Below are positions 3,644 to 54,328 of a DNA stretch of 64,000 bases, piece after piece. Position 1 is the first letter of the stretch; each line of letters starts with the position of its first letter. Source of the stretch: Minisyncoccota bacterium. GTDB taxonomy: Bacteria > Patescibacteriota > Minisyncoccia > Phycocordibacterales > JAQTLZ01. The position numbers and the translations under genes are program-made. Location: the NCBI GenBank assembly GCA_028711065.1, contig JAQTSY010000002.1, positions 73,779 to 137,778 of the forward strand. The letters are read 5' to 3'. The notes under the pieces were generated by a model. That model worked only from the letters and a program-made list of their open reading frames with translations. It was not told where the DNA came from and did no database searches.

Positions 3644-4315
3644 ATGGAAGCAACAGTCTACAACCAAAGAGGTATGGAAACAGGGAAAGTAAAACTTCCC
3701 GAGGCAGTATTCGGCGTTCACTGGAATTCTGACTTGGTTCACCAAGTGACAACTTCGATGAAGACCAATGCTCGAAAGCCTGTTGCTCACACAAAGACTC
3801 GAGGAGAAGTGCGAGGAGGAGGCAAGAAGCCTTGGAGACAGAAAGGTACTGGCCGAGCTCGTCACGGTTCTACTCGTTCTCCAATCTGGGTTGGCGGAGG
3901 TGTTGCTCACGGTCCTCGAAATGATCAGAATTTCACTCGAAAAATCAATCGTTCAATGAAGGCGAAAGCTCTCTACACGATCCTTTCCCGAAAATTGAAA
4001 GACAAAGAAATCATCTTTGTTGATACTTTGAATATGGACAGCGGAAAAACAAAAGATGCAAAGGAGATCGTTATGAATCTCGGCAAGATCGCAGGCTTTG
4101 AAAAGCTTTCAACAAAACGAAAGAATGCCGCTTATATCACTCTTGGACATAAGGATGTTGCGGTAGAGCGAGGTTTCGGAAACTTTGGAAATGTCACTGT
4201 GGATGAACTTCGAAATATGAATCCAATGGACTTGATGCAGAATGCATATCTCATCATCACAGAACCAGAAAAGTCGTTCGAGTTTTTGGCTTCTAAGCTA
4301 CCAGCTAAAAGCTAA
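3644..4315 (+). CDS. rplD: 50S ribosomal protein L4
   Basis: The listed ORF 3563..4315 overlaps rplC. An ATG at 3644 lies immediately after the rplC stop and gives a typical ~224-aa L4 (MEATVYNQRG...). Confidence 0.88.
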   Translation: MEATVYNQRGMETGKVKLPEAVFGVHWNSDLVHQVTTSMKTNARKPVAHTKTRGEVRGGGKKPWRQKGTGRARHGSTRSPIWVGGGVAHGPRNDQNFTRKINRSMKAKALYTILSRKLKDKEIIFVDTLNMDSGKTKDAKEIVMNLGKIAGFEKLSTKRKNAAYITLGHKDVAVERGFGNFGNVTVDELRNMNPMDLMQNAYLIITEPEKSFEFLASKLPAKS

Positions 4316-5813: not shown

Positions 5814-6272
5814 TTGGCTTTAAAGTTTCGTTTCGGGAATTTCTGGGAGGACTTAGTCATGCCAATCGGTGCTTTGTTTTTGAGTTTCTGTGCGCTTGTG
5901 ATGCTTGTCATTGCTCCGTTTGGTTTCTATGCAGGATTTAAGAGACCAAAAGAGTGTACATTGCCACGTACCACTCTCGCATTGTCCCTCATTTGTCTGC
6001 CGTCGCTTTTGTGTGTTGGCTTCTATCTTGGAAGTTGGTATTATCCATCGCCACTAAGACCTGACCGAATCGAGTTTGGTTTAATCTATAAAATAGATGC
6101 GAGAGTGCCCGATGGTGACGGTACTCTCTATATTTTGTCTCAATCATCGGATCAGATGAAATTGTTGGTCCGTGATTCAGGCTCATTACCAGCAGGTTTG
6201 GCAGAGTGTTCCGTTGTTCGAGACTGGGAACATCAAGAGACCCATCTTAGTCTCGTCCCTTCGCCTCGATAA
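5814..6272 (+). CDS. hypothetical small membrane protein inserted between rplB and rpsS (alternative start at 5859)
   Basis: ORF with two predicted TM segments. It is followed by a strong terminator and a promoter. It is unusual for this conserved operon. Confidence 0.45.
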   Translation: MALKFRFGNFWEDLVMPIGALFLSFCALVMLVIAPFGFYAGFKRPKECTLPRTTLALSLICLPSLLCVGFYLGSWYYPSPLRPDRIEFGLIYKIDARVPDGDGTLYILSQSSDQMKLLVRDSGSLPAGLAECSVVRDWEHQETHLSLVPSPR

Positions 6273-9475: not shown

Positions 9476-10024
9476 ATGGATTCAGTAAAAGAAAAACAGA
9501 ATAAAGCTTTTGAGCATCTCAAAACAAAGATGCATTATAAGAACGCAATGCAAGCGCCAAAGATGGTGAAGGTTGTGGTGAGCGCTGGCGTTGGTTCAAT
9601 GAAAGACAAGAAGAAAATTGAGCTTGTTGCAAACCGACTGGCGAAAATCACCGGCCAGAAGCCGGCAGTTCGAGGCGCAAAGAAATCAATCGCATCTTTC
9701 AAAGTTAGACAGAATGATCCAGTTGGGTATCAGGTAACTATCCGAGGAACACGAATGTATGGATTTCTCGATAAGCTTTTGAATGTCGCCCTCCCTCGAA
9801 CTCGAGACTTCCGAGGACTTTCTAGGAAAGCAGTGGATGCGATGGGGAACTACACAATCGGAATCAAGGAGCACACCATTTTCCCAGAAACTCCGGATGA
9901 AGAAATCAAAGATGTGTTCGGTCTTGCAGTAACGCTCGTAACAAATGCAAAGAATCCAAAAGAAGCCGAAGCTTTTCTCGAATATATCGGATTGCCGTTG
10001 AAGAAAGAGGAAGTGAAGAAATAA
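9476..10024 (+). CDS. rplE: 50S ribosomal protein L5
   Basis: 182 aa matching L5. Confidence 0.94.
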   Translation: MDSVKEKQNKAFEHLKTKMHYKNAMQAPKMVKVVVSAGVGSMKDKKKIELVANRLAKITGQKPAVRGAKKSIASFKVRQNDPVGYQVTIRGTRMYGFLDKLLNVALPRTRDFRGLSRKAVDAMGNYTIGIKEHTIFPETPDEEIKDVFGLAVTLVTNAKNPKEAEAFLEYIGLPLKKEEVKK

Positions 10025-10026
10025 AC

Positions 10027-10056
10027 AAAAAAACCGCTTTCGCGGTTTTTTTGTTT
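10027..10056 (+). terminator. rho-independent terminator (AAAAAACCGCTTTCGCGGTTTTTTTG)
   Basis: GC stem with a T-tract directly after the rplE stop. Confidence 0.7.
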
Positions 10057-10111
10057 ATTTCTGTGGGAATCTTTTCTGGACATATAATACGTAAAGACAT
10101 AGCATATACCT

Positions 10112-10600
10112 ATGCTGAAAAAGATTTACATTTTTTGTATTGTAATTGGTATCATCTTGAACTTTATCCCTGGTGCGAGATTGTTTGGAGTTATACTAAT
10201 CGCTCTCGGGGTTATTCTTGGTTTGTTCTCCCTACCCAAAGCAGGAACTTCGTTCGCGCAGTCTACACCATCTTTACTTAACGTATGGTCTAGATACTAC
10301 GTTCCCTATGTAGGAATTCTTGTTCTCCTATTGGTACTTTACTTCTTTCTGGGGTCCTCATTGCCATTCTTGAGATTAGTCGTTGTGCTATATGCTGTTG
10401 TGGGTGGTCTTGGTTATAGATACTTAGCGCTTAGAACATCTGTCGGTCAAGCCAAAGATCGAATAAATGATTATCGATCTTCAGGCACATCCAGTGATGC
10501 CAAAGTTTACTACGCTCTTATTGCCATTAGTTTTATAGCAGTTATTATTTCCTCTTTTGTGGTCCCTTTGGTTTCGGTACTAATAAATAATCCTCACTAG
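10112..10600 (+). CDS. hypothetical integral membrane protein (about 4 TM) inserted between rplE and rpsZ
   Basis: Hydrophobic 162-aa ORF bounded by a terminator upstream and a promoter downstream. Confidence 0.5.
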   Translation: MLKKIYIFCIVIGIILNFIPGARLFGVILIALGVILGLFSLPKAGTSFAQSTPSLLNVWSRYYVPYVGILVLLLVLYFFLGSSLPFLRLVVVLYAVVGGLGYRYLALRTSVGQAKDRINDYRSSGTSSDAKVYYALIAISFIAVIISSFVVPLVSVLINNPH

Positions 10601-11107: not shown

Positions 11108-11500
11108 ATGTCAACCGATTTAATTTCAGATCTCATAATTCAACTCAAAAACGCAGGAGACGCCGGCAAGGAAACTCTTTCTGTTTCTCATTCTGATTTG
11201 AAAGCTTCAATTTTGGAACTTCTCGCAAAGAGCGGTTACATCGCTTCTTTCACCAAGCGAGGAAAGAAAGTAAATAAATTTTTGGATGTTGTTCTTGCAA
11301 AGAAGGAAGGGATGCCACGAATCAGCGGAGTAAAAAGACTTTCTCATGTTTCTTCGCGACAATACAAAGGCGTAGCTGATATTCGACGAGTGAAGCAGGG
11401 ACACGGAATGATGGTGCTCACGACTCCAAAAGGAATTCTTTCTGATGTTGAAGCACGAAAGGAGAAAGTTGGAGGTGAAGCACTTTTCGAAATATGGTAA
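11108..11500 (+). CDS. rpsH: 30S ribosomal protein S8
   Basis: 130 aa matching S8. Confidence 0.93.
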   Translation: MSTDLISDLIIQLKNAGDAGKETLSVSHSDLKASILELLAKSGYIASFTKRGKKVNKFLDVVLAKKEGMPRISGVKRLSHVSSRQYKGVADIRRVKQGHGMMVLTTPKGILSDVEARKEKVGGEALFEIW

Positions 11501-11545
11501 AAAATTCGTAAAATCGGAGCACTTCTTCGTTGGTTCGGGTCGAAG

Positions 11546-11610
11546 GCTTCCTCGCAGTAGGTCATCTACAGCTCGGTCGCACTTCTCCCTCCCGCCTCGA
11601 ATTGCTCACA
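11546..11610 (+). repeat. conserved ~65-nt intergenic motif (copy 1) between rpsH and rplF: GCTTCCtCGCAGTAGGTcaTCTACAGCtcGGTCGC...GCCTCGAAtTGCTCA
   Basis: About 75% identity with 15133-15199, including a 30-nt near-identical core with a small GTAG/CTAC hairpin. Confidence 0.6.
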
Positions 11611-11632
11611 ATTTAACAAATTTTAAAAAAAT

Positions 11633-13819: not shown

Positions 13820-15091
13820 ATGGATAATTTCTTCTCCAAATTAAAGCTCATTATCGCGGATAAGAGCATTAGAAATCGAGTACTCTTTACACTCGGTGCT
13901 TTGATTATCTTTCGACTGCTCGCAAACATCCCAATTCCTGGAATTGACGTCGCGCGACTGCAAGCTTTCTTCGCAAACAGCCAGTTTTTGGGACTTTTGA
14001 ATGTATTTTCTGGAGGTGGGCTTTCAAACCTTTCTCTCATTATGCTCGGAGTCGGTCCGTACATCACTGCATCTATCATCATGCAGCTTTTGACCATGAT
14101 GGTGCCGAAGCTCAAGGCGATGTATCAGGAAGAGGGTGAAGCAGGACGCGCAAAATTTGCACAGTACTCCCGTCTTGTCGGCGTACCGCTCGCATTTCTC
14201 CAGGCGTTCGGCTTTCTCCTCCTTCTTCAGAAGCAGGGAATTGTGCCGTCTCTCGGAGGTTTTGCTCTGGCCGTAAATGTTATCGTCATTGCCGGAGGCT
14301 CTGTCCTTCTCATGTGGATCGGAGAACTTATCACTGAATTTGGAATTGGAAACGGAGTTTCGCTCATCATCTTTGCCGGAATCGTGGCAAGAATCCCAAC
14401 AGCAATGAGCCAAGCGCTTGTTTCTTTCGATGCTTCACAAATTCCTGTCTATATCGGTTTCTTGGCTGCCGCCGTAGCGATTATCTTTGGTGTCGTCATC
14501 ATTACTGAAGGCGAACGGCCAATTCCAGTCACGTATGCAAAGCGAGTCCGTGGAATGAAAGTGTATGGAGGAACTTCGACATATCTTCCTCTTCGATTGA
14601 ATCAAGCTGGAGTTATTCCAATTATTTTCGCACTTTCAATTTTGCTCTTCCCACAGATGATTTTCAATTTCCTTTCTTCGACAGGGAACGCGACGATAAG
14701 CGCTATTGGTACATTCGTCCTTGCTGTTATCGCAAACAAGTGGATTTATGCGCTTGCGTATTTCATCCTCGTATTTCTCTTTACTTATTTCTACACAGCA
14801 GTTACTTTCGATCCAGATTCTATTTCAGAAAATCTCCAGAAGAACGGCGCGTTCATTCCAGGAGTTCGCCCAGGACAATCCACTTCAGCGCATATTTATA
14901 AAATCTTGAATCGTCTCACGCTTTTCGGCGCACTTTTCCTCGGTATTATTGCTGTGCTTCCGCTCGCAATGCAGGCCCTCACAGGAATTCAATCTCTTGC
15001 TATTGGAGGTACTGCGCTTCTCATTGTTGTTTCTGTAGTTCTCGACTTGATGAAAAAAGTAGACGCTCAAATCAGTATGCGCGAATATTAA
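13820..15091 (+). CDS. secY: preprotein translocase subunit SecY
   Basis: 423 aa, 10 TM, SecY homology. Confidence 0.96.
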   Translation: MDNFFSKLKLIIADKSIRNRVLFTLGALIIFRLLANIPIPGIDVARLQAFFANSQFLGLLNVFSGGGLSNLSLIMLGVGPYITASIIMQLLTMMVPKLKAMYQEEGEAGRAKFAQYSRLVGVPLAFLQAFGFLLLLQKQGIVPSLGGFALAVNVIVIAGGSVLLMWIGELITEFGIGNGVSLIIFAGIVARIPTAMSQALVSFDASQIPVYIGFLAAAVAIIFGVVIITEGERPIPVTYAKRVRGMKVYGGTSTYLPLRLNQAGVIPIIFALSILLFPQMIFNFLSSTGNATISAIGTFVLAVIANKWIYALAYFILVFLFTYFYTAVTFDPDSISENLQKNGAFIPGVRPGQSTSAHIYKILNRLTLFGALFLGIIAVLPLAMQALTGIQSLAIGGTALLIVVSVVLDLMKKVDAQISMREY

Positions 15092-15741
15092 AAGCTCGAA
15101 TCTGGCGAATTTCATCGTTACCAAAAAATTTCGCTTCCGTGCAGTAGGTTCACTACAGCGTGGTCGCGAAATTTTTTGTTGCCTCGAACTTCGCTCATAT
15201 TCGGGCTTTTAGTGGCCACTTCATTCTTGTGGGTTTTTTTAAATTTATTTAAATCGACGCGAACCGGGAACCCCCGTTACGTTTTTTTGTTGCCTCTTTC
15301 GTCGTTAGTGGTAGGATGAAATCTGGCCGCAAAGAAAGGAGGTGCATCACGATTACGAGAATCGCCTGAAAATCCGGCTTTCAGCGAGCTCCCAGTGGGT
15401 CTCTCCAGGCGAAAATCTGAGGGATTCAAAAGCCTTGTCAAATGGGGGCAACGTTCTCCGGTAAAGAAAAATTAGTGTCGCGCGCGGAGGTCACCAAACC
15501 GGTTGGCATAGAAGCGCGTGTAAGTGGAAGCGGGAATTGCTGTTGTCTCCCCCGGGAACGTCTAAAGGCATCTCCCTGGATTTTGTTTTCCAGGAAAACG
15601 ACAGGTGGAGAATTTTCTCCAAGGGCACGCCAGGTGCCCCAGAAGAACGAACCTATGGTTTCGACTTGGCGAGTGAGGGCGGTGGTGAGAAATCCACCGC
15701 TCTTTTTAATTAGGCTGTTTTTTGCTACTATAAGCCGTATT
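15092..15741. other. about 650-nt noncoding GC-enriched region between secY and adk; candidate structured RNA(s); no credible ORF
   Basis: Six-frame ORFs here are low-complexity N-terminal extensions or antisense. A perfect 13-bp stem (CAAAAAATTTCGC/GCGAAATTTTTTG) lies at 15121-15178. A second copy of the conserved motif shared with 11546-11610 is present. Confidence 0.5.
15133..15199 (+). repeat. conserved ~65-nt intergenic motif (copy 2) downstream of secY, embedded in the loop of a 13-bp perfect stem
   Basis: See copy 1. Confidence 0.6.
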
Positions 15742-16329
15742 ATGGCACCCAAGACATTCATTATGATTGGCCGATCTGGCTGTGGAAAGGGCACTCAAGC
15801 TGACCTTCTTTTGGCGCACCTCAAAGAAAAAACTGGTCTCAATGGCTATCATCTCGAGACTGGCAAGAAATTCCGCGAATTCATTCAGTCAAAAGGCTAC
15901 ACTAGCGGGCTTTCTCGACAGATCATTGAGGAAGGGGGGCTTCAGCCTGAATTTCTTGCTATTTGGAATTGGGCGAGTTCTCTTATCGAAAATCTGACTC
16001 CTGATGTGCACCTTGTTCTCGATGGTGCTCCACGAAAGCTGTTTGAAGCGGAAGTTTTGAATCTTGCGCTTGAATTTTATAAACGAGAAAATCCTGCAGT
16101 TATATTTTTGAATGTCAGCGAAAATTGGGCACGCGAGCGACTCATGGAGAGAGCGCGAGGAGATGATAAGAAAGATAGCATTAACAAAAGGCTTGCATGG
16201 TATGAAACTGAAGTGCTTCCTGTTGTCGAGTTTTTCAAAAAGAAAAAGAATTACCATTTTCTTGAAATAAATGGCGAACAGCCGATCGAAAAAGTGCAGG
16301 CAGATATTCTCAAAGGTCTCCGTATTTGA
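15742..16329 (+). CDS. adk: adenylate kinase (Zn-lid-less short form)
   Basis: GRSGCGKGTQA P-loop. The start was reassigned from the listed 15442 to the ATG at 15742. Confidence 0.9.
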   Translation: MAPKTFIMIGRSGCGKGTQADLLLAHLKEKTGLNGYHLETGKKFREFIQSKGYTSGLSRQIIEEGGLQPEFLAIWNWASSLIENLTPDVHLVLDGAPRKLFEAEVLNLALEFYKRENPAVIFLNVSENWARERLMERARGDDKKDSINKRLAWYETEVLPVVEFFKKKKNYHFLEINGEQPIEKVQADILKGLRI

Positions 16330-16372: not shown

Positions 16373-17140
16373 ATGGTTACAAAAAAGACAGAAAAAGATA
16401 TCGAATACCTGCGCGAAGGTGGAAAGCGTCTTGCTTTCATTTTAAAAGAACTTCAGAAGAAAGTTGCTCCGGGAGTAACCGGGCAGGAGCTTGAAGATTT
16501 TGCCCGAAAGCTCACCGAAGAAGGGGGAGACAAACCCGCATTTCTCGGTCACATGTCCAAACACGATAAAGTTCCATATCCAGCAGGACTCTGTCTTTCT
16601 ATTAACGACGAAGTGGTGCATAGCCCTGCGACTGGCGAAGGTAAGGTTATTAAAGAAGGAGATGTCGTAAGTCTCGATTATGGAATTATTCACAAAGGAC
16701 TTTACACTGATTCTGCTGTCACGGTGGCTGTCGGAAAAGTTGATGCTGTTGCGAAAAAACTTTTGAGCGTTACCAAAAAAGCTCTGGAGATCGGTATCAA
16801 AGAATGTAAAAACGGAAACACAACGGGAGATATTGGTTTTGCAATTGAGGAATACGTGAAGCCTTACAAATTTGGCATTATCCGAGAGCTTGCGGGACAT
16901 GGAGTTGGTTATAAAGTGCACGAGGACCCCTACATCCCCAATTACGGCAAAAAGGGCACAGGAGAGAAGCTTTTCCCTGGCATGGTGATTGCCATAGAAC
17001 CGATGCTTAATGAAGGAACAGCCGATATTAAGCTTGCAGAAGATGGATTTACCTATAAAACGCGGGACGGCAAGCGCGGAGCTCACTTTGAACACACCAT
17101 TCTTATCACAGAGGGAAAGCCTGAAATACTCACCAAATAG
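16373..17140 (+). CDS. map: methionine aminopeptidase type I
   Basis: 255 aa with MetAP metal-ligand pattern (D...D...H...E...E). Confidence 0.93.
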   Translation: MVTKKTEKDIEYLREGGKRLAFILKELQKKVAPGVTGQELEDFARKLTEEGGDKPAFLGHMSKHDKVPYPAGLCLSINDEVVHSPATGEGKVIKEGDVVSLDYGIIHKGLYTDSAVTVAVGKVDAVAKKLLSVTKKALEIGIKECKNGNTTGDIGFAIEEYVKPYKFGIIRELAGHGVGYKVHEDPYIPNYGKKGTGEKLFPGMVIAIEPMLNEGTADIKLAEDGFTYKTRDGKRGAHFEHTILITEGKPEILTK

Positions 17141-17209
17141 GCTCTAGGAGCGCTATCTTTTTTGAATATCTGCCGATATAATACTTGTAAACAAGTAACC
17201 TTTATTTAT

Positions 17210-17512
17210 ATGGAAAATTTTCAAAATGAAGATGAACTTTTGAAGGCAAATCCGCTTTTACAGCCATCTGGACATGTTCACTCGGAGCCAACAGATGAAG
17301 ATTTAGAGAGACATACCAAGGAAGTGGAAAGAGAAAATGCAACAAAGGAAACTGTTGTTATTCCAAAACAACGAACTGCTTCAGGGCGTGCCACGATGGA
17401 AACAGCTGTTATAGAAAAGCCCGAGCCGGGCAATGCTATTGTTGATCTGCCTCCGGATGATGCGTATGACTGGAAAGTTTACAAGAAGATGACAGGAAAA
17501 GGTAAAAAGTAG
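17210..17512 (+). CDS. hypothetical acidic small protein
   Basis: ORF immediately upstream of, and probably co-transcribed with, the large ATPase. Confidence 0.35.
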   Translation: MENFQNEDELLKANPLLQPSGHVHSEPTDEDLERHTKEVERENATKETVVIPKQRTASGRATMETAVIEKPEPGNAIVDLPPDDAYDWKVYKKMTGKGKK

Positions 17513-17520
17513 AGTTCATT

Positions 17521-20283
17521 ATGGAATTAGGTTCTCACCAAACATTTGAAAATCCGCAGGAGGAAATAAAATTCCTTCGGCAAGAGATTGCCAAAAAAGA
17601 AGAGGAGGTCCTGGAGCGCGGTGAGAAGCCGAATCACGAGAAAATCGCTCACGAAAAAATAGATGAGCTTCAGAACGCTGTCGTCAATCATCCTGGAATT
17701 CCAGCGAAACTTGTTCAGAAGGAGGTAGAAGCCATCGTTTTGAACCTCTCTCCAGAAACCCACGATGACAAGATGGCGGAACTTCTCGGTATCCTCCAAG
17801 AGCAAGGGATATTTCATGCACTTAAAGTGCTTGATGGAATTCATAATCCTCATCTGGAAGATGATTTTCATCGTCTGCTCGTCCAGTATTTAAGACAAGG
17901 TTTTCCTGCAAAAGGACTTAAAAATAAAAGTCCGCTTGAAAAATCTTTAAAAACCACTCTCTACGAAGTTTCGCTTCCTGAAGAGGAGGAAGAGGAGGGG
18001 AAGAATCCGAAAGAACTCAAAAATCTCATTTCAAAAATGGAGCAATTTTACGCCGGGATGCTTTCCATATCTGCGCAAGATTTTTCCGATGAGAATTGTT
18101 TCTCAATTGAAATTGCAAATGCCAGCGGTTCCCCAGAAACGATTTTTTATGTTTCAGTTCCGACCAGCAAATCTTCTCTTTTTGAAAAGCAGATGCTTTC
18201 CGTTTTTCCGGAAGCGAAGATAAAAGAGGTGAGCGATGATTTCAATATTTTTAATGAAACTGGTGTTTCGCTCGGTTCATATGCCACATCAGCAAGTAAG
18301 CCGATCTTTCCTCTGAAAACCTACGAAGAATTTGATTACGATCCTCTGAATGTTGTTCTCAATGCTTTCTCAAAGATAAAGCGAGATGGGGAAGGCGCGG
18401 CGCTCCAGCTTATTTTCAAACCCGCAGGACACGGCTATGCACAGCGCTACAAAATGGCGCTGGAAGAGATTAATAACGGTGTGCCGGTAAAGCGCGCTAC
18501 TGCCCTTCCCGAGACAATTCTGGGACATGTCTATGATGTAGGGAAAGATATTTTCTATTCGGATAAAAAACGCAAACAGGACAAAGAAAAAGCTCGGGAC
18601 GATATTGCCATTGAGCAGATCAAGAAAAAACTCGAAAGTCCGATTGTTGAAATAAATATACGAGTTATGGCTTCCGGGGTGAATCATTCCGATGCACAAG
18701 GGATTCTTTCTGAAATTGAGTCTGCATTTAACCAATTCAATAATGCGCAAGGAAATCATCTGGTGTGGAAACATCTTGAAGGCTCAAAACTTTTTGAACT
18801 TGAAAAAGATTTTTCATTTCGAATTTTTTCTCACGACCTCAAAATTCCTCTCAATCTGAAAGAGTTGACGAGCATTCTGCATTTCCCTCAGAAAGTAGAT
18901 ACTGCTCCGGAACTTCGCCAAGCAAAAGCAGGAACTGCTCCGGCACCAGTTGGGCTTCCAGAGAAGGGTACACTTCTCGGTATCAACAAGAATCGAAATA
19001 CCGATACCAAGATTTTCATGACTCCTGAAGATCGCCTTCGCCATATGTATGTTATCGGACAGACTGGTACCGGAAAGACGACCCTTCTCAAAAACATGAT
19101 TGCTCAAGATATTCTCGCGGGTGAGGGCGTATGTTTTATTGATCCGCACGGTTCTGATATTCAAGACATTCTCTCTATTGTTCCGAAAGAGCGCTATGAA
19201 GATGTGATTTATTTTGATCCCGCAAGTATCGAGAGGCCGATGGCTTTGAACATGCTCGAATATGATAGAAATTATCCAGAGCAGAAAACATTTGTGGTCA
19301 ACGAGCTTTTCAGCATTTTCCAAAAACTCTACGGTGCAAATCCAGAAAGTATGGGGCCGATGTTCGAGCAGTATTTTCGAAATGCGACGATGCTTGTGAT
19401 TGAAGATCCGGAAAGCGGTTCGACGCTTCTTGAAGTATCGCGGGTGATGGCGAATAAAGCATTTCGAGATCTCAAAATTTCAAGATGCAAAAATCCTGTG
19501 GTAGTACAGTTCTGGAAAGAAGTGGCGGAGAAAGCTGGTGGGGAAGCATCGCTCGCAAACATTGTACCTTACATCACGAGCAAATTTGATGTCTTTCTCG
19601 CGAACGAAATTATGCGTCCAATTATCGCGCAGGAAAAATCGTCTTTCAATTTCCGCGATGTGATGGATAACAAGAAAATCCTTCTGGTAAATCTCTCGAA
19701 AGGACGCTTGGGAGACATCAACGCTAACCTCATTGGCCTCATTCTCGTCGGCAAAATCCTTATGGCGGCTCTGTCTCGTGTAGATTCATTTGGAAAAGAT
19801 TTGCCGAACTTCTACCTCTATATTGATGAATTCCAAAATGTAACGACGAATTCCATTGCCCAAATTCTTTCAGAAGCTCGAAAATACAAGCTCTCACTCT
19901 CTGTGGCTCACCAATTCATCGCCCAGCTTGAAGAAGATATTAAAGACGCAGTATTTGGAAACGTTGGCTCCATCGCGACATTCCGAGTGGGGGCGGAAGA
20001 CGCTGAATATTTGGCAAAACAATTTGAACCGGTCTTTACCCAAAAAGATATTATGAATTTGGACAATCGAAATGCATATTTGAAACTGCTCTCCGGCGGA
20101 AAACCGCTCAAACCATTTAATATCGAAACCCTCGCTCCTCCAAAAGGAAATCTCGACATCGTCGGGAAACTCAAAGAACTCTCGTATCTCAAATTCGGCC
20201 GTCCAAGAGAGGAGGTAGAAGAAGAAGTGATGAAAAAATACGCCAAGGCCCCCGTTCCTGCTCCAGCACCAGTAGGCTTGTAA
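17521..20283 (+). CDS. 920-aa protein: ~450-aa N-terminal region of unknown function plus a C-terminal VirD4/TraD/TraG-like (DUF87/HerA-FtsK superfamily) P-loop ATPase
   Basis: Walker A GQTGTGKTT followed by FIDPHGSD. Walker B-like LYIDEFQN. An LVNLSKGRLG motif typical of type IV coupling-protein-like ATPases. No N-terminal TM was detected. Confidence 0.7.
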   Translation: MELGSHQTFENPQEEIKFLRQEIAKKEEEVLERGEKPNHEKIAHEKIDELQNAVVNHPGIPAKLVQKEVEAIVLNLSPETHDDKMAELLGILQEQGIFHALKVLDGIHNPHLEDDFHRLLVQYLRQGFPAKGLKNKSPLEKSLKTTLYEVSLPEEEEEEGKNPKELKNLISKMEQFYAGMLSISAQDFSDENCFSIEIANASGSPETIFYVSVPTSKSSLFEKQMLSVFPEAKIKEVSDDFNIFNETGVSLGSYATSASKPIFPLKTYEEFDYDPLNVVLNAFSKIKRDGEGAALQLIFKPAGHGYAQRYKMALEEINNGVPVKRATALPETILGHVYDVGKDIFYSDKKRKQDKEKARDDIAIEQIKKKLESPIVEINIRVMASGVNHSDAQGILSEIESAFNQFNNAQGNHLVWKHLEGSKLFELEKDFSFRIFSHDLKIPLNLKELTSILHFPQKVDTAPELRQAKAGTAPAPVGLPEKGTLLGINKNRNTDTKIFMTPEDRLRHMYVIGQTGTGKTTLLKNMIAQDILAGEGVCFIDPHGSDIQDILSIVPKERYEDVIYFDPASIERPMALNMLEYDRNYPEQKTFVVNELFSIFQKLYGANPESMGPMFEQYFRNATMLVIEDPESGSTLLEVSRVMANKAFRDLKISRCKNPVVVQFWKEVAEKAGGEASLANIVPYITSKFDVFLANEIMRPIIAQEKSSFNFRDVMDNKKILLVNLSKGRLGDINANLIGLILVGKILMAALSRVDSFGKDLPNFYLYIDEFQNVTTNSIAQILSEARKYKLSLSVAHQFIAQLEEDIKDAVFGNVGSIATFRVGAEDAEYLAKQFEPVFTQKDIMNLDNRNAYLKLLSGGKPLKPFNIETLAPPKGNLDIVGKLKELSYLKFGRPREEVEEEVMKKYAKAPVPAPAPVGL

Positions 20284-20340: not shown

Positions 20341-20931
20341 ATGCCACACCACAAAGAAGAGAGAACACTTGTTATTATTAAGCCAGATGGACTCCAGAGA
20401 ACACTCATTGGGGAAATTATTGGGCGCTACGAGAGAATTGGTCTTAAGCTTGTCGCGATGAAAATGGTGAAAGCTTCAAGCGAGCACATCGACCAGCATT
20501 ATAATCTCGACCCAATGTGGAGGAAGAATGTAGGAGAGAAATCGATCAAAGGATACATGGAGAAAGGTCTCACTCCTCCTTCAAATGATCCACTGGTGAT
20601 CGCACAGCAGGTTGTTGATGCTTTAAAAAAATATATGAGCGCTGGCCCAGTTATTGCAATGGTGTGGCAGGGGGGGAATGCGGTAAAGATCGTCCGAAAA
20701 GTAACTGGAGGGACAGAACCACTTACATCTGACGTCGGGACCATCCGAGGAGATTTCGTGCTTGATTCATACGCAATGGCAGATAAGGATAGCCGAGCTA
20801 TTCGAAATCTGATTCACGCATCTGGCTCGGTCAAAGAAGCAGAAGATGAAATTAAGCACTGGTTTAAAAAAGAGGAACTTTACGATTATGAACTTATTCA
20901 GGAGGCAATCCTGTACGGAGTAAATTTGTAG
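20341..20931 (+). CDS. ndk: nucleoside diphosphate kinase
   Basis: LVIIKPDG...NLIHASGS active-site His motif. Confidence 0.9.
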   Translation: MPHHKEERTLVIIKPDGLQRTLIGEIIGRYERIGLKLVAMKMVKASSEHIDQHYNLDPMWRKNVGEKSIKGYMEKGLTPPSNDPLVIAQQVVDALKKYMSAGPVIAMVWQGGNAVKIVRKVTGGTEPLTSDVGTIRGDFVLDSYAMADKDSRAIRNLIHASGSVKEAEDEIKHWFKKEELYDYELIQEAILYGVNL

Positions 20932-20934
20932 CTC

Positions 20935-21099
20935 AAAGTGTGAATAACCTTTTATTAAAACAGAATAGCCGTCCCAGCGGGACGGCTTTCTTCATGCTCG
21001 GGCAAATTTCGTCAATGAGCCCGCCTCTTGCAGGGCGGGACGTTGACGAACCATGCAATTTGCCCTGCGCAATGTTTAATAAAAGGTTATTCACACTTT
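20935..21099. repeat. 165-bp complex palindrome between convergent ndk and yibE/F-like genes: perfect 25-bp AT-rich outer arms enclosing nested GC hairpins
   Basis: AAAGTGTGAATAACCTTTTATTAAA at 20935-20959 is the reverse complement of 21075-21099. Inner hairpins include GCCGTCCCAGCGGGACGGC and CCCGCCTCTTGCAGGGCGGG. Confidence 0.75.
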
Positions 21100-21113
21100 T
21101 CGCTCAACATGCT

Positions 21114-30278: not shown

Positions 30279-30388
30279 GGTCGCGAAATGTAGTATTTTA
30301 AAAACGCGACATAAAACTTTGCTAAGTTTTTGCTATGCTCGGCCCAGCCGGCCTGCGCAATGTTTTTAAAATACTACATTTCGCGACC
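30279..30388. repeat. 110-bp palindromic element between cls and infC: perfect 27-bp arms (GGTCGCGAAATGTAGTATTTTAAAAAC) around a GC-rich inner hairpin
   Basis: Arms at 30279-30305 and 30362-30388 are exact reverse complements. Confidence 0.75.
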
Positions 30389-37276: not shown

Positions 37277-38908
37277 ATGAACAAACCAAAATTTTTCTTA
37301 TACGCGCGAAAATCAACGGAGGACGACGATCATCAGATCATGAGTATTGAAGCGCAACTTTTTGAGCTTCGAGAATTCGCGCGTAAAGAAAATCTTGAAA
37401 TTCTGGCTGAATTTCAAGAGTCGAAAAGCGCAAAGAAACCGGGTCGTGAACTTTTTAACGAAATGATGGCCCGCATTGAAACTATGGATGGTGTCGGTAT
37501 TCTCGCATGGCATCCTGACCGACTTGCTCGCAATAGTGTGGACGGCGGACGCATCATTTACGCTGTAGACACGACCAGAATCGTTTCTTTGCGATTTCCG
37601 ACATTTTGGTTTGAACCCACTCCGCAAGGGAAATTTATGTTGCAAGTGGCGTTCGGCCAGTCCAAATATTATTCAGACAATCTCGTTGAGAATATTAACC
37701 GAGGTATCCGCCAAAAAGTGAGAAGAGGCGAATGGCTGGTGAAAGCTCCGTTTGGCTATGTGAATAATCCGAGAACGAGGAATATCGAACCTGACGCGGT
37801 GAAATCACGCATTGTGGTCGGAGCTTTCAAAGAGTACGCCACTGGCAAGCATTGTTTCGGATCACTTTCGGCATTTTTGGCGGATAGAGGTGCTGTGACG
37901 AGATACGGAACGCCACTTGCCAAAGCTTCCGTCTCGATTATGTTGTCGAACAAAGCATATCTCGGTCTGGTCAAACATCGCGGTGAATTTTTCGCCGGAA
38001 GCTTTGCGCCAATTCTTTCTCTCGACTTGTTTGAAGCCGTACAGAAGATTTTGCGAGAACGAGCAAAGCCCCGCAAAACAAAAACCGGTCACAATTTTCC
38101 TTTCACCGGACTTTTTCGTTGCGGAGAATGTGGAAGCATGATTACCGCTCAATGGTGCACCGGAGAACATGGCGGACGCTATCGCTACTATCGCTGTACG
38201 AAAAAGAAAGGAAAATGTGAACAGAAGTATTTGCGGGAGGATGCGCTCGCCTCGCAGGTGAAAGCACGGCTCAAACAAGTCGGACTTCCCGACGACTGGA
38301 CCGACTTTATGCTAAACAAAGTGCAAGATTGGGAGAAAGTGGAAAAAGTGTCGTCGGGAAGCCTTGTCGAGCGGATTAAGGAGAATGAGCGAGAGACGGA
38401 ACAAAAGCTCGGGAAGCTCGTCACTTTGTTTCTGGACGGCGATATTCCCAAAGAAAATTATCTCGCCAAGAAAAACGAGCTTTTGAAAGAAAAGGTGTCT
38501 CTCGCTCAAAAAATGGATTCCGCCCGACAAGAGAGAAAGAATTGGGTCGAACCCTTGCGAGAGTGGATTTTAGATACGAAAAAAGCCACGCAATTGGCTT
38601 CGTCCGATAATTTTGAAGAAATGCGGACATTTCTTCGCCGAGTCGGAACGAACCCAAAATTGCGGGACAAATCCGTCTCTGTCTCATTTTGCCCACCCTC
38701 CGAATTCGCTTGCGGGCGCAGGGCGGAATGCGGGTTCACCGGAGATCGCGCGCCTTCGGCGCGCTCAAATTTTTTGCTCCCTGAATCGGAAGTCTTAATA
38801 TGTGGAGACGGCGGGAATCGAACCCGCGTGCAAGAGGTTTCCTTGAATGGTTCTACAAAGGGTAGTTTATTTTTTCCGCTTTCGCGGATTTCGAACTCGT
38901 CCGTCTAG
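37277..38908 (+). CDS. large serine recombinase (resolvase/invertase catalytic domain + recombinase domain + Zn-ribbon + coiled coil). The ORF has no stop before IR-B and reads through it into the tmRNA gene; the functional C-terminus is probably near 38690
   Basis: N-terminal YARKSTEDDDHQIMSIEAQ (catalytic Ser) and C-terminal CGECG...C zinc ribbon. ~50% identity to the second recombinase at 46645-48201. Confidence 0.85.
   Translation: MNKPKFFLYARKSTEDDDHQIMSIEAQLFELREFARKENLEILAEFQESKSAKKPGRELFNEMMARIETMDGVGILAWHPDRLARNSVDGGRIIYAVDTTRIVSLRFPTFWFEPTPQGKFMLQVAFGQSKYYSDNLVENINRGIRQKVRRGEWLVKAPFGYVNNPRTRNIEPDAVKSRIVVGAFKEYATGKHCFGSLSAFLADRGAVTRYGTPLAKASVSIMLSNKAYLGLVKHRGEFFAGSFAPILSLDLFEAVQKILRERAKPRKTKTGHNFPFTGLFRCGECGSMITAQWCTGEHGGRYRYYRCTKKKGKCEQKYLREDALASQVKARLKQVGLPDDWTDFMLNKVQDWEKVEKVSSGSLVERIKENERETEQKLGKLVTLFLDGDIPKENYLAKKNELLKEKVSLAQKMDSARQERKNWVEPLREWILDTKKATQLASSDNFEEMRTFLRRVGTNPKLRDKSVSVSFCPPSEFACGRRAECGFTGDRAPSARSNFLLPESEVLICGDGGNRTRVQEVSLNGSTKGSLFFPLSRISNSSV
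38691..38805. repeat. IR-B right copy, abutting and overlapping by 5 nt the 3' end of the tmRNA gene
   Basis: See IR-B left. The terminal core CTTAATATGTGG includes tmRNA 3'-terminal nucleotides. Confidence 0.9.
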
Positions 38909-39197
38909 AATAAACAAAACCGAACGTGTTCTAGTCTCATTGGCTTTTGGCCTTCAAGTACGGCTCGAGACTGTCCATACTTTATCCCGAAAAATGACAC
39001 TTCACATTCCTCTATCGGGAAGTCGAAGAGGGAAGCGTCGCTTAGGCTATCGCGTAAGCGAAATCGTTTGCTCCAAAATATGGAGAAGCGATCTTTTGTG
39101 CAACTTTTGCAGTTGACTTTTGAAGCGGATTTAAGAGTCACTTCAGCTCTCCTTTGCACATACGAAGGGGAATCTCCTGTCTATGCCGATCATCCCC
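38803..39197 (-). ncRNA. ssrA: tmRNA (ssrA), predicted tag peptide ANDFAYAIA
   Basis: 5' end GGGGAUGAUCGGCAUAGACAGG resembles the tmRNA 5' consensus. The tRNA-like 3' end is GGUUCGAUUCCCGCCGUCUCCACA. The 5' GGGGAUG pairs with 3' CGUCUCC (two G-U pairs). The internal ORF GCA AAC GAT TTC GCT TAC GCG ATA GCC TAA begins with the characteristic AND. smpB lies immediately upstream on the same strand. Confidence 0.75.
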
Positions 39198-42376: not shown

Positions 42377-42453
42377 TGGTCCACCCTCCACGATTCGAAC
42401 GTGGGACCCCCGAGGTATAAGCTCGGTGCTCTAACCAGCTGAGCTAAGGGTGG
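42377..42453 (-). tRNA. tRNA-Ile with anticodon UAU (encoded CCA; discriminator A)
   Basis: Manual cloverleaf fold: acceptor CCACCCU/AGGGUGG, anticodon stem CCGAG/CUCGG with loop CUUAUAC, T-loop UUCGAAU. Confidence 0.7.
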
Positions 42454-46166: not shown

Positions 46167-46389
46167 TACCGATGCCCGAGTGGAGAAATCTGCTCGGGTG
46201 TTTTTTTTGCGGAGGAAGTGAAAATTTCGGTCGTTACACGACCAGTAAAGGCGAGATTCGGTCACAAGTATTTTTCTGCTGAAAAATCTCGCGACCCCGA
46301 CTCAGCACCCATGCGCTTCCGTCTTTCGAATCTCACTTCCTCTCGCAACGTCAAACGAAAAAAGATTTTCAATCTTTTGTCGGTCATTG

Positions 46390-46476
46390 CGGAGGAAGTG
46401 AGATTCGAACTCACGGAGCCAATTAAGGCTCGGCGGTTTAGTAAACCGCTGGTTTAAACCACTCACCCATTCCTCC
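46390..46476 (-). tRNA. class-II (long variable arm) tRNA-like gene with a non-canonical anticodon loop (UUACUAA, apparent anticodon ACU); possibly tRNA-Ser-derived or a pseudo-tRNA
   Basis: Manual fold: acceptor GGAGGAA/UUCCUCC, 3-bp D stem, D-loop GAGUGGUUUAA, variable arm GAGCC..GGCUC, T-loop UUCGAAU, discriminator G. No standard Ser or Leu anticodon was found. Confidence 0.5.
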
Positions 46477-53319: not shown

Positions 53320-53412
53320 TTCTCAATTTTAGCACTTTGTTGAAACTTAAAATAGATGGAGGCAGAGTTTTAATTAAAGAAACACTTTTTCAACTCGTAC
53401 TAAAATAACCCC

Positions 53413-53808
53413 ATGCCCCCAGACGAAACCACGACTCCAGAACCTGTTGCCCCCGGCCCCGAAACGCCAGTTTCGGGCGATTCCCCAGAACCCCCAGAAA
53501 CCACCCCTCCCGAAGAATCAAGCCCCCAAGCACCCCCTGAGGCCCCAGAAGCCCCTAGAAGCGACGGTAATTTAGGAGCGGTCATGGACACAGCTCCTAA
53601 AACCGAGCCCTTTCTTTCAAGGGAGCCCGCCACGCTTCCCGAATTCGCGTGGCGGGAAATCGTGCGCGCACGGTGGGTGGGGCAAGCACATACAAAATTG
53701 AGTCTCGGGCTCCTCGGGCATTTTCCGCGACGGGCTTTTTACAATAATGAGCGCCGACCCGAACGAAGAGAAGAAACTTTGGTAGCGAAAGCGACACCAC
53801 GAACATGA
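53413..53808 (+). CDS. Pro/Glu/Thr-rich hypothetical ORF inside a ~60% GC patch (53400-54060); coding status doubtful
   Basis: ORF with a compositional anomaly. Both strands have overlapping ORFs. Confidence 0.2.
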   Translation: MPPDETTTPEPVAPGPETPVSGDSPEPPETTPPEESSPQAPPEAPEAPRSDGNLGAVMDTAPKTEPFLSREPATLPEFAWREIVRARWVGQAHTKLSLGLLGHFPRRAFYNNERRPERREETLVAKATPRT

Positions 53809-53902
53809 AGATGAAAACGAGCAAGGGGGTTGTGCGAGGGTGTGAAAACAACCCGACGCTGGGGGGAGGATTCCTTCCTCCCCCCAAAGGGAGCGTGCAT
53901 GG

Positions 53903-53938
53903 CTGAACGGCTCATATGGTGGAATTGAGCCGTTCAGC
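53903..53938. repeat. conserved hairpin motif CTGAACGGCTCATATGGTGGAATTGAGCCGTTCAGC (perfect 11-bp stem), second copy of 34805-34836
   Basis: See the first copy. Confidence 0.7.
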
Positions 53939-54099
53939 TTCTGCACGCACCAACACATCTAGGCGCGAGTAGCCCTAGCGGAAATGCCCGAGGCGGATGC
54001 CGAGTGGTGAACCCGACGGACAAGTACCACAGAAGGTCAGATATGATAAAATAAGCCCGAGATTCCGAATTGAATTCCGCCTTCCAGTTTTTACTGGAA

Positions 54100-54328
54100 C
54101 CCCACCGGAAAATCCCTTTTCCATTTGAAAAAATCCTGCGCGACTCAATCCAGCAAAGAGAGATTTCTCCGGTGGGGGCAACGCCGAGGTACTCCTCGGC
54201 GTTGGGGCGGAATTCATTGGTGGAGCGTAGTTTGGAGTTTCAAGTCACCACGCACGCGGCGCGTGCGATTAGATGCAGTCATCGGGGTTTTCTGCGAAAT
54301 AGTTTCGAACTTCGTTCAATAAACACCG
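54100..54328. repeat. IR2 copy b (inverted partner of 48337-48565), distal boundary of island 2; flanked by a 14-bp direct repeat ATATGATAAAATAA (54041-54054 and 54338-54351)
   Basis: Direct comparison. Confidence 0.9.

Follow-up and report, generated by a model that had tools for sequence, protein, structure and literature searches.

A composite secY-adk spacer in a Paceibacteria genome: a hairpin of a dispersed, covarying family followed by a lineage-specific GC-rich segment

What occupies the 650 nt that separate secY from adk in a member of the Paceibacteria? The genomes of CPR/Patescibacteria are tiny, and very little has been described of the RNA biology of this group. The window (the whole 64,000-nt stretch of DNA analysed here) carries the S10-spc ribosomal-protein cluster of such a genome. 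The initial annotation took the spacer for a GC-enriched noncoding region, full of stem-loops, and suggested that it was either an undescribed structured RNA or an extended structured leader of adk-map. We propose, at a probability of about 0.6, that the spacer is a composite: a 123-nt hairpin, one of a family, begins at the secY stop codon, and an unrelated, lineage-specific noncoding insert of about 480 nt follows it. The features on which the argument draws are these:

11498-11626, plus strand: the window's other member of the hairpin family, filling the gap between rpsH (S8) and rplF (L6)
13820-15091, plus strand: secY, with stop codon TAA at 15089-15091
15089-15211, plus strand: 123-nt hairpin, starting with the secY stop codon
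15122-15178, plus strand: inner hairpin, a perfect 13-bp stem with an apical stem-loop
15172-15185, plus strand: 14-nt direct repeat TTTTTTGTTGCCTC, copy 1, a deletion endpoint in the MAG L084
15212-15282, plus strand: AT-rich linker with two T7 runs, deleted in L084
15283-15296, plus strand: the same 14-nt direct repeat, copy 2, the other deletion endpoint in L084
15297-15674, plus strand: core of the GC-rich segment, 378 nt, GC 0.52, noncoding and lineage-specific
15675-15710, plus strand only: intrinsic terminator with an 11-bp stem (7 G-C), an 8-nt loop and a T-run
15711-15741, plus strand: stretch upstream of adk, in which only GTATTATG is clearly common with the relative L081
15742-16329: adk, with its start at 15742
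16373-17140: map, 3' of adk

The limits of the spacer, 15092-15741, were confirmed, and so was the absence of a credible ORF: none of its ORFs matched Pfam at E<=1, and gene callers called nothing in the spacer of L084, a MAG of the same species (SecY 100% identical) in which the spacer is identical to that of the window except for the loss of 111 nt. The GC enrichment holds between about 15290 and 15700, where GC reaches 0.52 against 0.44 for the whole window (97th percentile among 414-nt windows), and fails for the first 200 nt, with a GC of 0.42. As to the stem-loops said to fill the region, the folding z-score of the whole spacer (-4.8) was traced to two elements, the hairpin of 123 nt (z = -9.6) and the terminator at the 3' end (z = -3.2). 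These two explain the overall value because the GC-rich core is matched in stability by shuffled sequence, with z = -1.5 (-1.52) on the plus strand, where 7 of 100 shuffles were as stable, and z = -0.4 (-0.40) on the minus strand. Nor is the linker unusually structured (z = -0.25 for 15212-15296).

The initial annotation had looked by eye for RNase P, SRP domain IV and 6S features without a convincing match; Rfam 15 extended this negative to all of its families. At the gathering threshold the whole window returned just one tmRNA and three tRNAs, all outside the spacer, and at E<=10 the interval 14900-15900 gave four noise matches of 11-22 bits against thresholds of 40-99. By inspection, the GAAAUCUGGCC and CAGAAGAACGAACC of the GC-rich segment form no P4 helix of RNase P, and the segment holds neither an SRP domain IV motif nor a T-box sequence. 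The tmRNA gene lies at 38800-39197 on the minus strand (108 bits) and encodes the tag peptide AQKIASPYFGANDFAYAIA. ARAGORN placed a tRNA-Ile (anticodon TAT) at 42377-42453 and a tRNA-Ser (anticodon ACT) at 46389-46476, both on the minus strand, and close by, at 46325-46342 / 46392-46409, 18 nt of a tRNA 3' end recur as a perfect inverted copy. The second GC-richest stretch of the window, 53400-54300 (0.56-0.59), contains a low-complexity ORF rich in Pro, Glu and Thr; the next ~450 nt show no convincing ORF, and Rfam at E<=1 gave noise only.

The structured part of the spacer starts at the secY stop codon. The 123-nt hairpin has a minimum free energy of -54.1 kcal/mol, and inside it lies the perfect 13-bp stem (CAAAAAATTTCGC/GCGAAATTTTTTG) already noticed in the initial annotation, which runs from 15122-15134 to 15166-15178 rather than from 15121, one base off, and is part of a 26-nt inverted repeat. 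The A6-stem-U6 core of the hairpin is like the bidirectional A-tract/T-tract terminators elsewhere in the window, for example at 10017-10062. In L081, a relative with 82% amino acid identity in Adk, the hairpin is 95% identical to that of the window and the adjoining secY coding sequence about 80%. Five of the six differences fall in the outer stem, with pairing kept or improved: from the window to L081, the U-G pair at U15096 becomes C-G, and the C15097:G15203 pair and the C15102/U15198 mismatch are each replaced by U:A. The 111 nt lost in L084 correspond to 15172-15282, that is, one 14-nt repeat and the 97 nt between the two copies. The loss, which may reflect either slippage within the population or the way the MAG was assembled, would mark 15172-15282 as dispensable; its site in L084 is 3952-4077, and it removes the 3' outer arm of the hairpin.

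Is this hairpin peculiar to the locus? The short secY-adk gaps of more distant relatives fold to the same architecture with entirely different stem sequences, and a seed alignment of eight post-secY copies showed compensatory changes in 28 of 35 pairs. Family copies were sought in about 0.8 Mb around secY, consisting of loci of about 9 kb and the one 64-kb window. A covariance model built from the seed (R1) found 17 non-redundant sense copies in 12 Paceibacteria genomes, and a second-generation model (R2) added no further members in the searched loci. R1 gives the hairpin at the secY stop 129 bits, and R2 gives it 128. In eleven cases secY precedes the copy; the remaining ones were found at S8|L6 (one, in the window), at L6|L18 (two, in L020 and L038), at L14|L24 (one, in L031), after ndk (one, in L083) and, as the one antisense copy, between L5 and S14 in L062. 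The orientation relative to transcription is 16:1. Two copies each are present in the window, L020, L031, L038 and L062. The elements are about 123-135 nt long with six to seven helices, and the orthologous copy after secY is kept across species whose SecY identity falls as low as 59%. The S8|L6 copy of the window reaches 62 bits in the R1 search and 100 bits in the R2 search, and folds better on the minus strand (z = -6.1) than on the plus strand (z = -4.0).

The pairing was evaluated on model-based alignments, used in place of a 17-copy MAFFT alignment that dropped the middle helices in RNAalifold. In the full model alignment 87.1% of cells were paired, compared with 60.8% in shuffled alignments and 33-45% with slid partners, and 34 of the 35 pairs showed changes on both sides; for the sense-only alignment the values were 85.9% against 61.7% shuffled, with both-side changes at 31 of 35. 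None of 500 shuffles matched the observed pairing values. These comparisons argue for a conserved structure in which the base pairs have been held by compensatory substitutions beyond the controls. Covariation among relatives, which the initial annotation had suggested looking for, was found for the first ~123 nt of the spacer only. The unpaired parts are also conserved, as 5' AUnUCnUCGU, an apex GUAC..GUAC and 3' GCCUnGnA, and because the conserved nucleotides cluster in these strand-asymmetric parts the sense score (129 bits) is far above the antisense score (51). A U-G wobble is conserved in 13 of the 17 copies. Counted on the sense strand, the stems contain 34 G-U against 21 A-C overall, and 11 against 21 outside the three conserved wobble columns. 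Since there is no G-U excess outside these columns and the S8|L6 copy favours the minus strand, the stems alone do not prove that selection acted on the sense RNA rather than on the DNA.

A literature search returned no paper on repeated hairpin elements in CPR bacteria, and there is no Rfam family for them either. ERIC elements are about 127 bp long. ERIC/IRU of enterobacteria, NEMIS/Correia of Neisseria and RUP are like the hairpin in size class, noncoding, and palindromic throughout. MITEs are defined as noncoding elements of 70-300 bp with inverted repeats, found near genes, and in bacteria they are transcribed, their folding stabilising or destabilising the mRNA (PMC3733652). The hairpin fits this descriptive definition and shows the multiple copies and insertion polymorphism of a MITE, and it is also MITE-like in its place beside or between co-transcribed genes, in its diverged copies and in its presence or absence among relatives. 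It differs in that the family has no demonstrated sequence relation to ERIC, NEMIS/Correia or RUP, in that neither a cognate transposase nor a clear target-site duplication was found in the searched loci, and in a copy number that looks low (two in 64 kb). Moreover, the secY copy is kept with compensatory changes, closer to a constrained RNA motif than to a decaying transposon.

REPs are extragenic palindromes that lie for the most part a short way downstream of coding regions and are plausibly transcribed RNA elements; they measure 20-40 bp, their stems have 8-9 bp and their loops 4-5 nt, and each carries a terminal GTAG or CGTC tag (PMC3733652). Like REP/BIME and the rickettsial RPEs, the hairpin is an extragenic palindrome, and it has an unpaired CGU(U/C) 5' of the inner stem; however, its length is three to four times that of a REP, it is built of several helices with internal loops, and its CGU motif is internal. 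Length, helix number and tag placement rule out a GTAG- or CGTC-tagged REP, and by inspection the architecture is unfit for an attC/integron site, a K-turn or a sarcin-ricin motif. The early and late mRNAs of phage T7 contain intercistronic RNase III processing hairpins of about 60 nt. With these and with 3' stabiliser hairpins the element shares a long irregular hairpin, a conserved asymmetric internal loop and a position exactly between cistrons of a polycistronic mRNA, as an analogy of mechanism only; it is longer than the T7 sites and has no known sequence relation to them. Finally, the inner 13-bp stem and U6 of the window copy fit an intrinsic terminator, whereas the family does not: a U-tract is absent from most members, which are placed between ribosomal-protein genes that are essential and co-transcribed. 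Because its copies sit inside essential operons, the family is not primarily a terminator.

The distribution of the copies suggests turnover. Loop and apex variants are shuffled among positions and genomes, the apex at L6|L18 in L038 being the one found at secY in L031, and loops of 'type 2' lie at secY in two genomes (L020 and L038) but at L14|L24 in a third (L031). Neither window copy is present in L085, where the S8-L6 gap measures 9 nt, and in L083 a family copy follows ndk, a site that in the window holds a long palindrome of another kind. That palindrome (20930-21104) adjoins the 3' side of ndk at the exact site of the L083 hairpin and, together with 30279-30388, forms a second, unrelated family with near-perfect arms of 27-30 nt and the common interior ATGCTCGG...CCTGCGCAATGTTT(A/T)A.

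From this pattern we infer that the hairpin family may spread or turn over in a MITE-like manner, which raises the possibility that it is purely selfish DNA, with pairing kept for mobilisation or by concerted evolution and no role at the RNA level. Several copies per genome at different junctions, the shuffled loop and apex variants, the differences in presence and absence among close relatives and stems without G-U excess would all be expected of such DNA. The TA dinucleotides that flank many copies would be as well, but these are the stop codon paired with its complement, and other copies have no TA. A purely selfish element sits poorly with the 16:1 orientation bias, with loop motifs that are conserved and strand-asymmetric, the wobble included, and with a hairpin retained at 95% identity at an orthologous site whose flanking coding sequence has drifted to about 80%. 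In addition, the two window copies are too diverged for recent transposition, and no transposase was seen in the small loci searched. We regard a purely selfish origin as possible though somewhat unlikely. The reading we favour is that the family behaves like ERIC or MITE elements and probably also acts as an mRNA hairpin. It would be co-transcribed with secY and form an RNA hairpin at an mRNA 3' end or an intercistronic site, where it may act as a stabilising 3'-end barrier, as a processing site for a double-strand RNase or in partial termination, which in the window copy would operate through the A6-stem-U6 core. A more far-reaching proposal, which we consider speculative and rather improbable, is that the family is a CPR-specific cis-acting RNA module at the cistron boundaries of ribosomal-protein operons, that the GC-rich segment is a young orphan sRNA gene, or both. 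In such a module the pyrimidine-rich internal loop AUnUCnUCGU / GCCUnGnA and the GUAC apex would be recognised by a dedicated protein or RNase and would set processing, stability or translational coupling.

Beyond the hairpin, the spacer was compared across 62 related genomes in which both secY and adk were detected. The gap is at most 293 nt in 37 of them and at least 585 nt in 25, and all 25 long gaps contain an ORF of at least 135 codons, so that a 650-nt gap without an ORF is atypical. The match between L081 and the window is almost perfect over the stretch that runs from the secY stop to about 15237, which takes in only the first ~25 nt of the linker; beyond it nothing aligns except the final ~8 nt upstream of adk. 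The filler of L081 is 570 nt long and AT-rich, with an ORF of 94-123 codons. L085 (SecY 92% identical in amino acids) has a different terminator 3' of secY and a gap of 1577 nt with two minus-strand genes, and the contig of the sister genome L083 (~90% DNA identity) breaks within adk. Genes of about 200 aa that look like guanylate kinases, judging from motifs read by eye, lie between secY and adk in L017, L021, L033, L040-L044, L046, L050 and L063 (Kaiserbacteria-like), and a cytidylate-kinase-like gene lies there on the opposite strand in L027 and L085 (in L085 the call comes from precomputed Pfam). The site is a recurrent home of nucleotide-kinase genes. At the end of the ribosomal-protein (spc) operon, the secY-adk spacer thus forms a hypervariable junction, a hotspot with other content in each lineage. 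Other additions to this region were seen. In the window two ORFs for hydrophobic membrane-like proteins of 152 and 162 aa (5814-6272 and 10112-10600) lie within the S10-spc cluster, the first between L2 and S19 and the second between L5 and S14, and L085 has an unannotated 200-aa gene between L5 and S8. Downstream of map, in the place of infA-rpmJ-rpsM, come a small ORF and a conserved DUF8128/TraG-VirD4-like ATPase of 920 aa (17162-20283), an arrangement common to all close relatives (L081, L083, L085).

The GC-rich segment itself (about 15238-15718, ~480 nt) has no similarity in L081 or L085, no nhmmer or blastn match in 80 related loci, no blastn or tblastx match in the rest of the window or those 80 loci, and no match in phage or plasmid collections. 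Two 20-mers taken from it gave 0 matches against viral contigs, and one 20-mer gave 6 matches over just 20-24 nt against metagenome contigs, which is chance level. The only other known copy, in L084, is 100% identical, an identity that is uninformative on constraint because the MAG is of the same strain or species. The absence of the GC-rich part from L081 and L085, without any conservation, is what the initial annotation had named as a refutation, and we conclude that the spacer is not a single structured RNA of about 650 nt; what survives of the undescribed structured ncRNA first proposed is its noncoding character and one real structured element. In length, GC richness, lack of coding and an end at a terminator, the segment is like OLE, GOLLD, ROOL, HEARO, raiA, RNase P, 6S, SRP and tmRNA, and it differs from them in having no Rfam match (E<=10), no conservation in relatives and no excess folding stability. 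Neither conservation with covariation nor folding energy, then, places it among the large structured ncRNAs. Nor is it a CsrB-like GGA decoy, with 10 GGA against 9 TCC in 414 nt and hence no enrichment. Most likely the segment is lineage-specific, non-conserved, noncoding filler, and its high GC content suggests that it was acquired recently rather than that it decayed long ago.

The alternatives for the spacer differ in how much function they assign to it. A species-specific ncRNA gene at about 15297-15710, with its own promoter near 15290-15317 and ending in the terminator at 15675-15710, would account for the GC of 0.52, similar to that of the tmRNA gene region, in a genome of 0.44, for the T-runs upstream and the strong unidirectional terminator downstream, which bound the segment as they would an independent sRNA gene, and for the absence of coding. 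The segment has also stayed unchanged in L084 despite the loss of the adjoining 111 nt, but identity within one strain or species is no sign of constraint. The core folds no better than 7% of its shuffles, no search found a homologue, the segment is missing from relatives whose secY DNA is ~80% identical, and a consensus scan found no promoter-like site on the plus strand of the spacer; we judge such a gene unlikely. The segment contains a perfect SD-like AAAGGAGGTG at 15335-15344 with no usable ORF 3' of it; by inspection it could pair with CCTCTTTC at 15293-15300, a point in favour of an RNA gene. The terminator fits the definition of an intrinsic terminator fully and lies 32 nt 5' of the adk start codon, a position that would equally suit the expression platform of a riboswitch-like leader or attenuator of adk-map formed by the spacer or its 3' part, and by inspection ACAGGTGGAG at 15602-15613 resembles the 5' arm of the terminator and could compete for the 3' arm. 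Yet Rfam gave no riboswitch or leader match at E<=10, neither L081 nor L085 nor any of 60 other relatives has the element in front of adk, and a 400-nt aptamer without excess stability would be atypical. The conserved ~123 nt, for their part, belong to the dispersed family, and since that family occurs at other gene junctions the hairpin is not a specific adk-map leader. A leader of this kind, as the initial annotation had offered, we consider very improbable.

Least probable of all, to the point of being scarcely credible, is that the spacer conceals either a small protein gene or, as a decayed pseudogene, the nucleotide-kinase gene present between secY and adk in relatives. Stop-free frames of 100-118 codons do occur on both strands, and guanylate- or cytidylate-kinase-like genes do occupy this position elsewhere. 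However, beyond the empty Pfam search and the lack of gene calls in L084, blastx and tblastx against the gap ORFs of relatives and the L081 and L085 gaps gave nothing below E = 0.09 (E>0.09), by which a kinase pseudogene was rejected. The 118-codon minus-strand frame had no match in a word-indexed search of 5.8 billion proteins, and the 107-codon plus-strand frame, in a full HMMER scan of 1.84 billion representatives, had one borderline match to a repeat protein (E = 3e-4) that is not meaningful. The plus-strand frame also crosses the terminator hairpin, and a pseudogene of long standing in an AT-rich genome would not be expected to be GC-rich. Evidence for a small protein gene was thus sought in Pfam, gene calls and protein searches and not found, in agreement with the noncoding reading first given.

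The composite of a family hairpin and an unrelated insert remains the reading we prefer. In such a spacer the terminator would stop read-through and insulate adk, and with a terminator in this position adk-map would have to restart from a promoter in the last ~30 nt; a putative adk promoter or leader would accordingly lie within 15711-15741. More generally, a spacer in an AT-rich genome that is GC-rich and looks full of hairpins may prove to be a composite, and the folding z-score of a whole region can come entirely from a single hairpin and a single terminator. For the Paceibacteria, a structure-conserved hairpin at the cistron boundaries of essential ribosomal-protein genes may be either a tolerated mobile palindrome, in which case it would be informative on genome plasticity in reduced genomes, or a real post-transcriptional signal.
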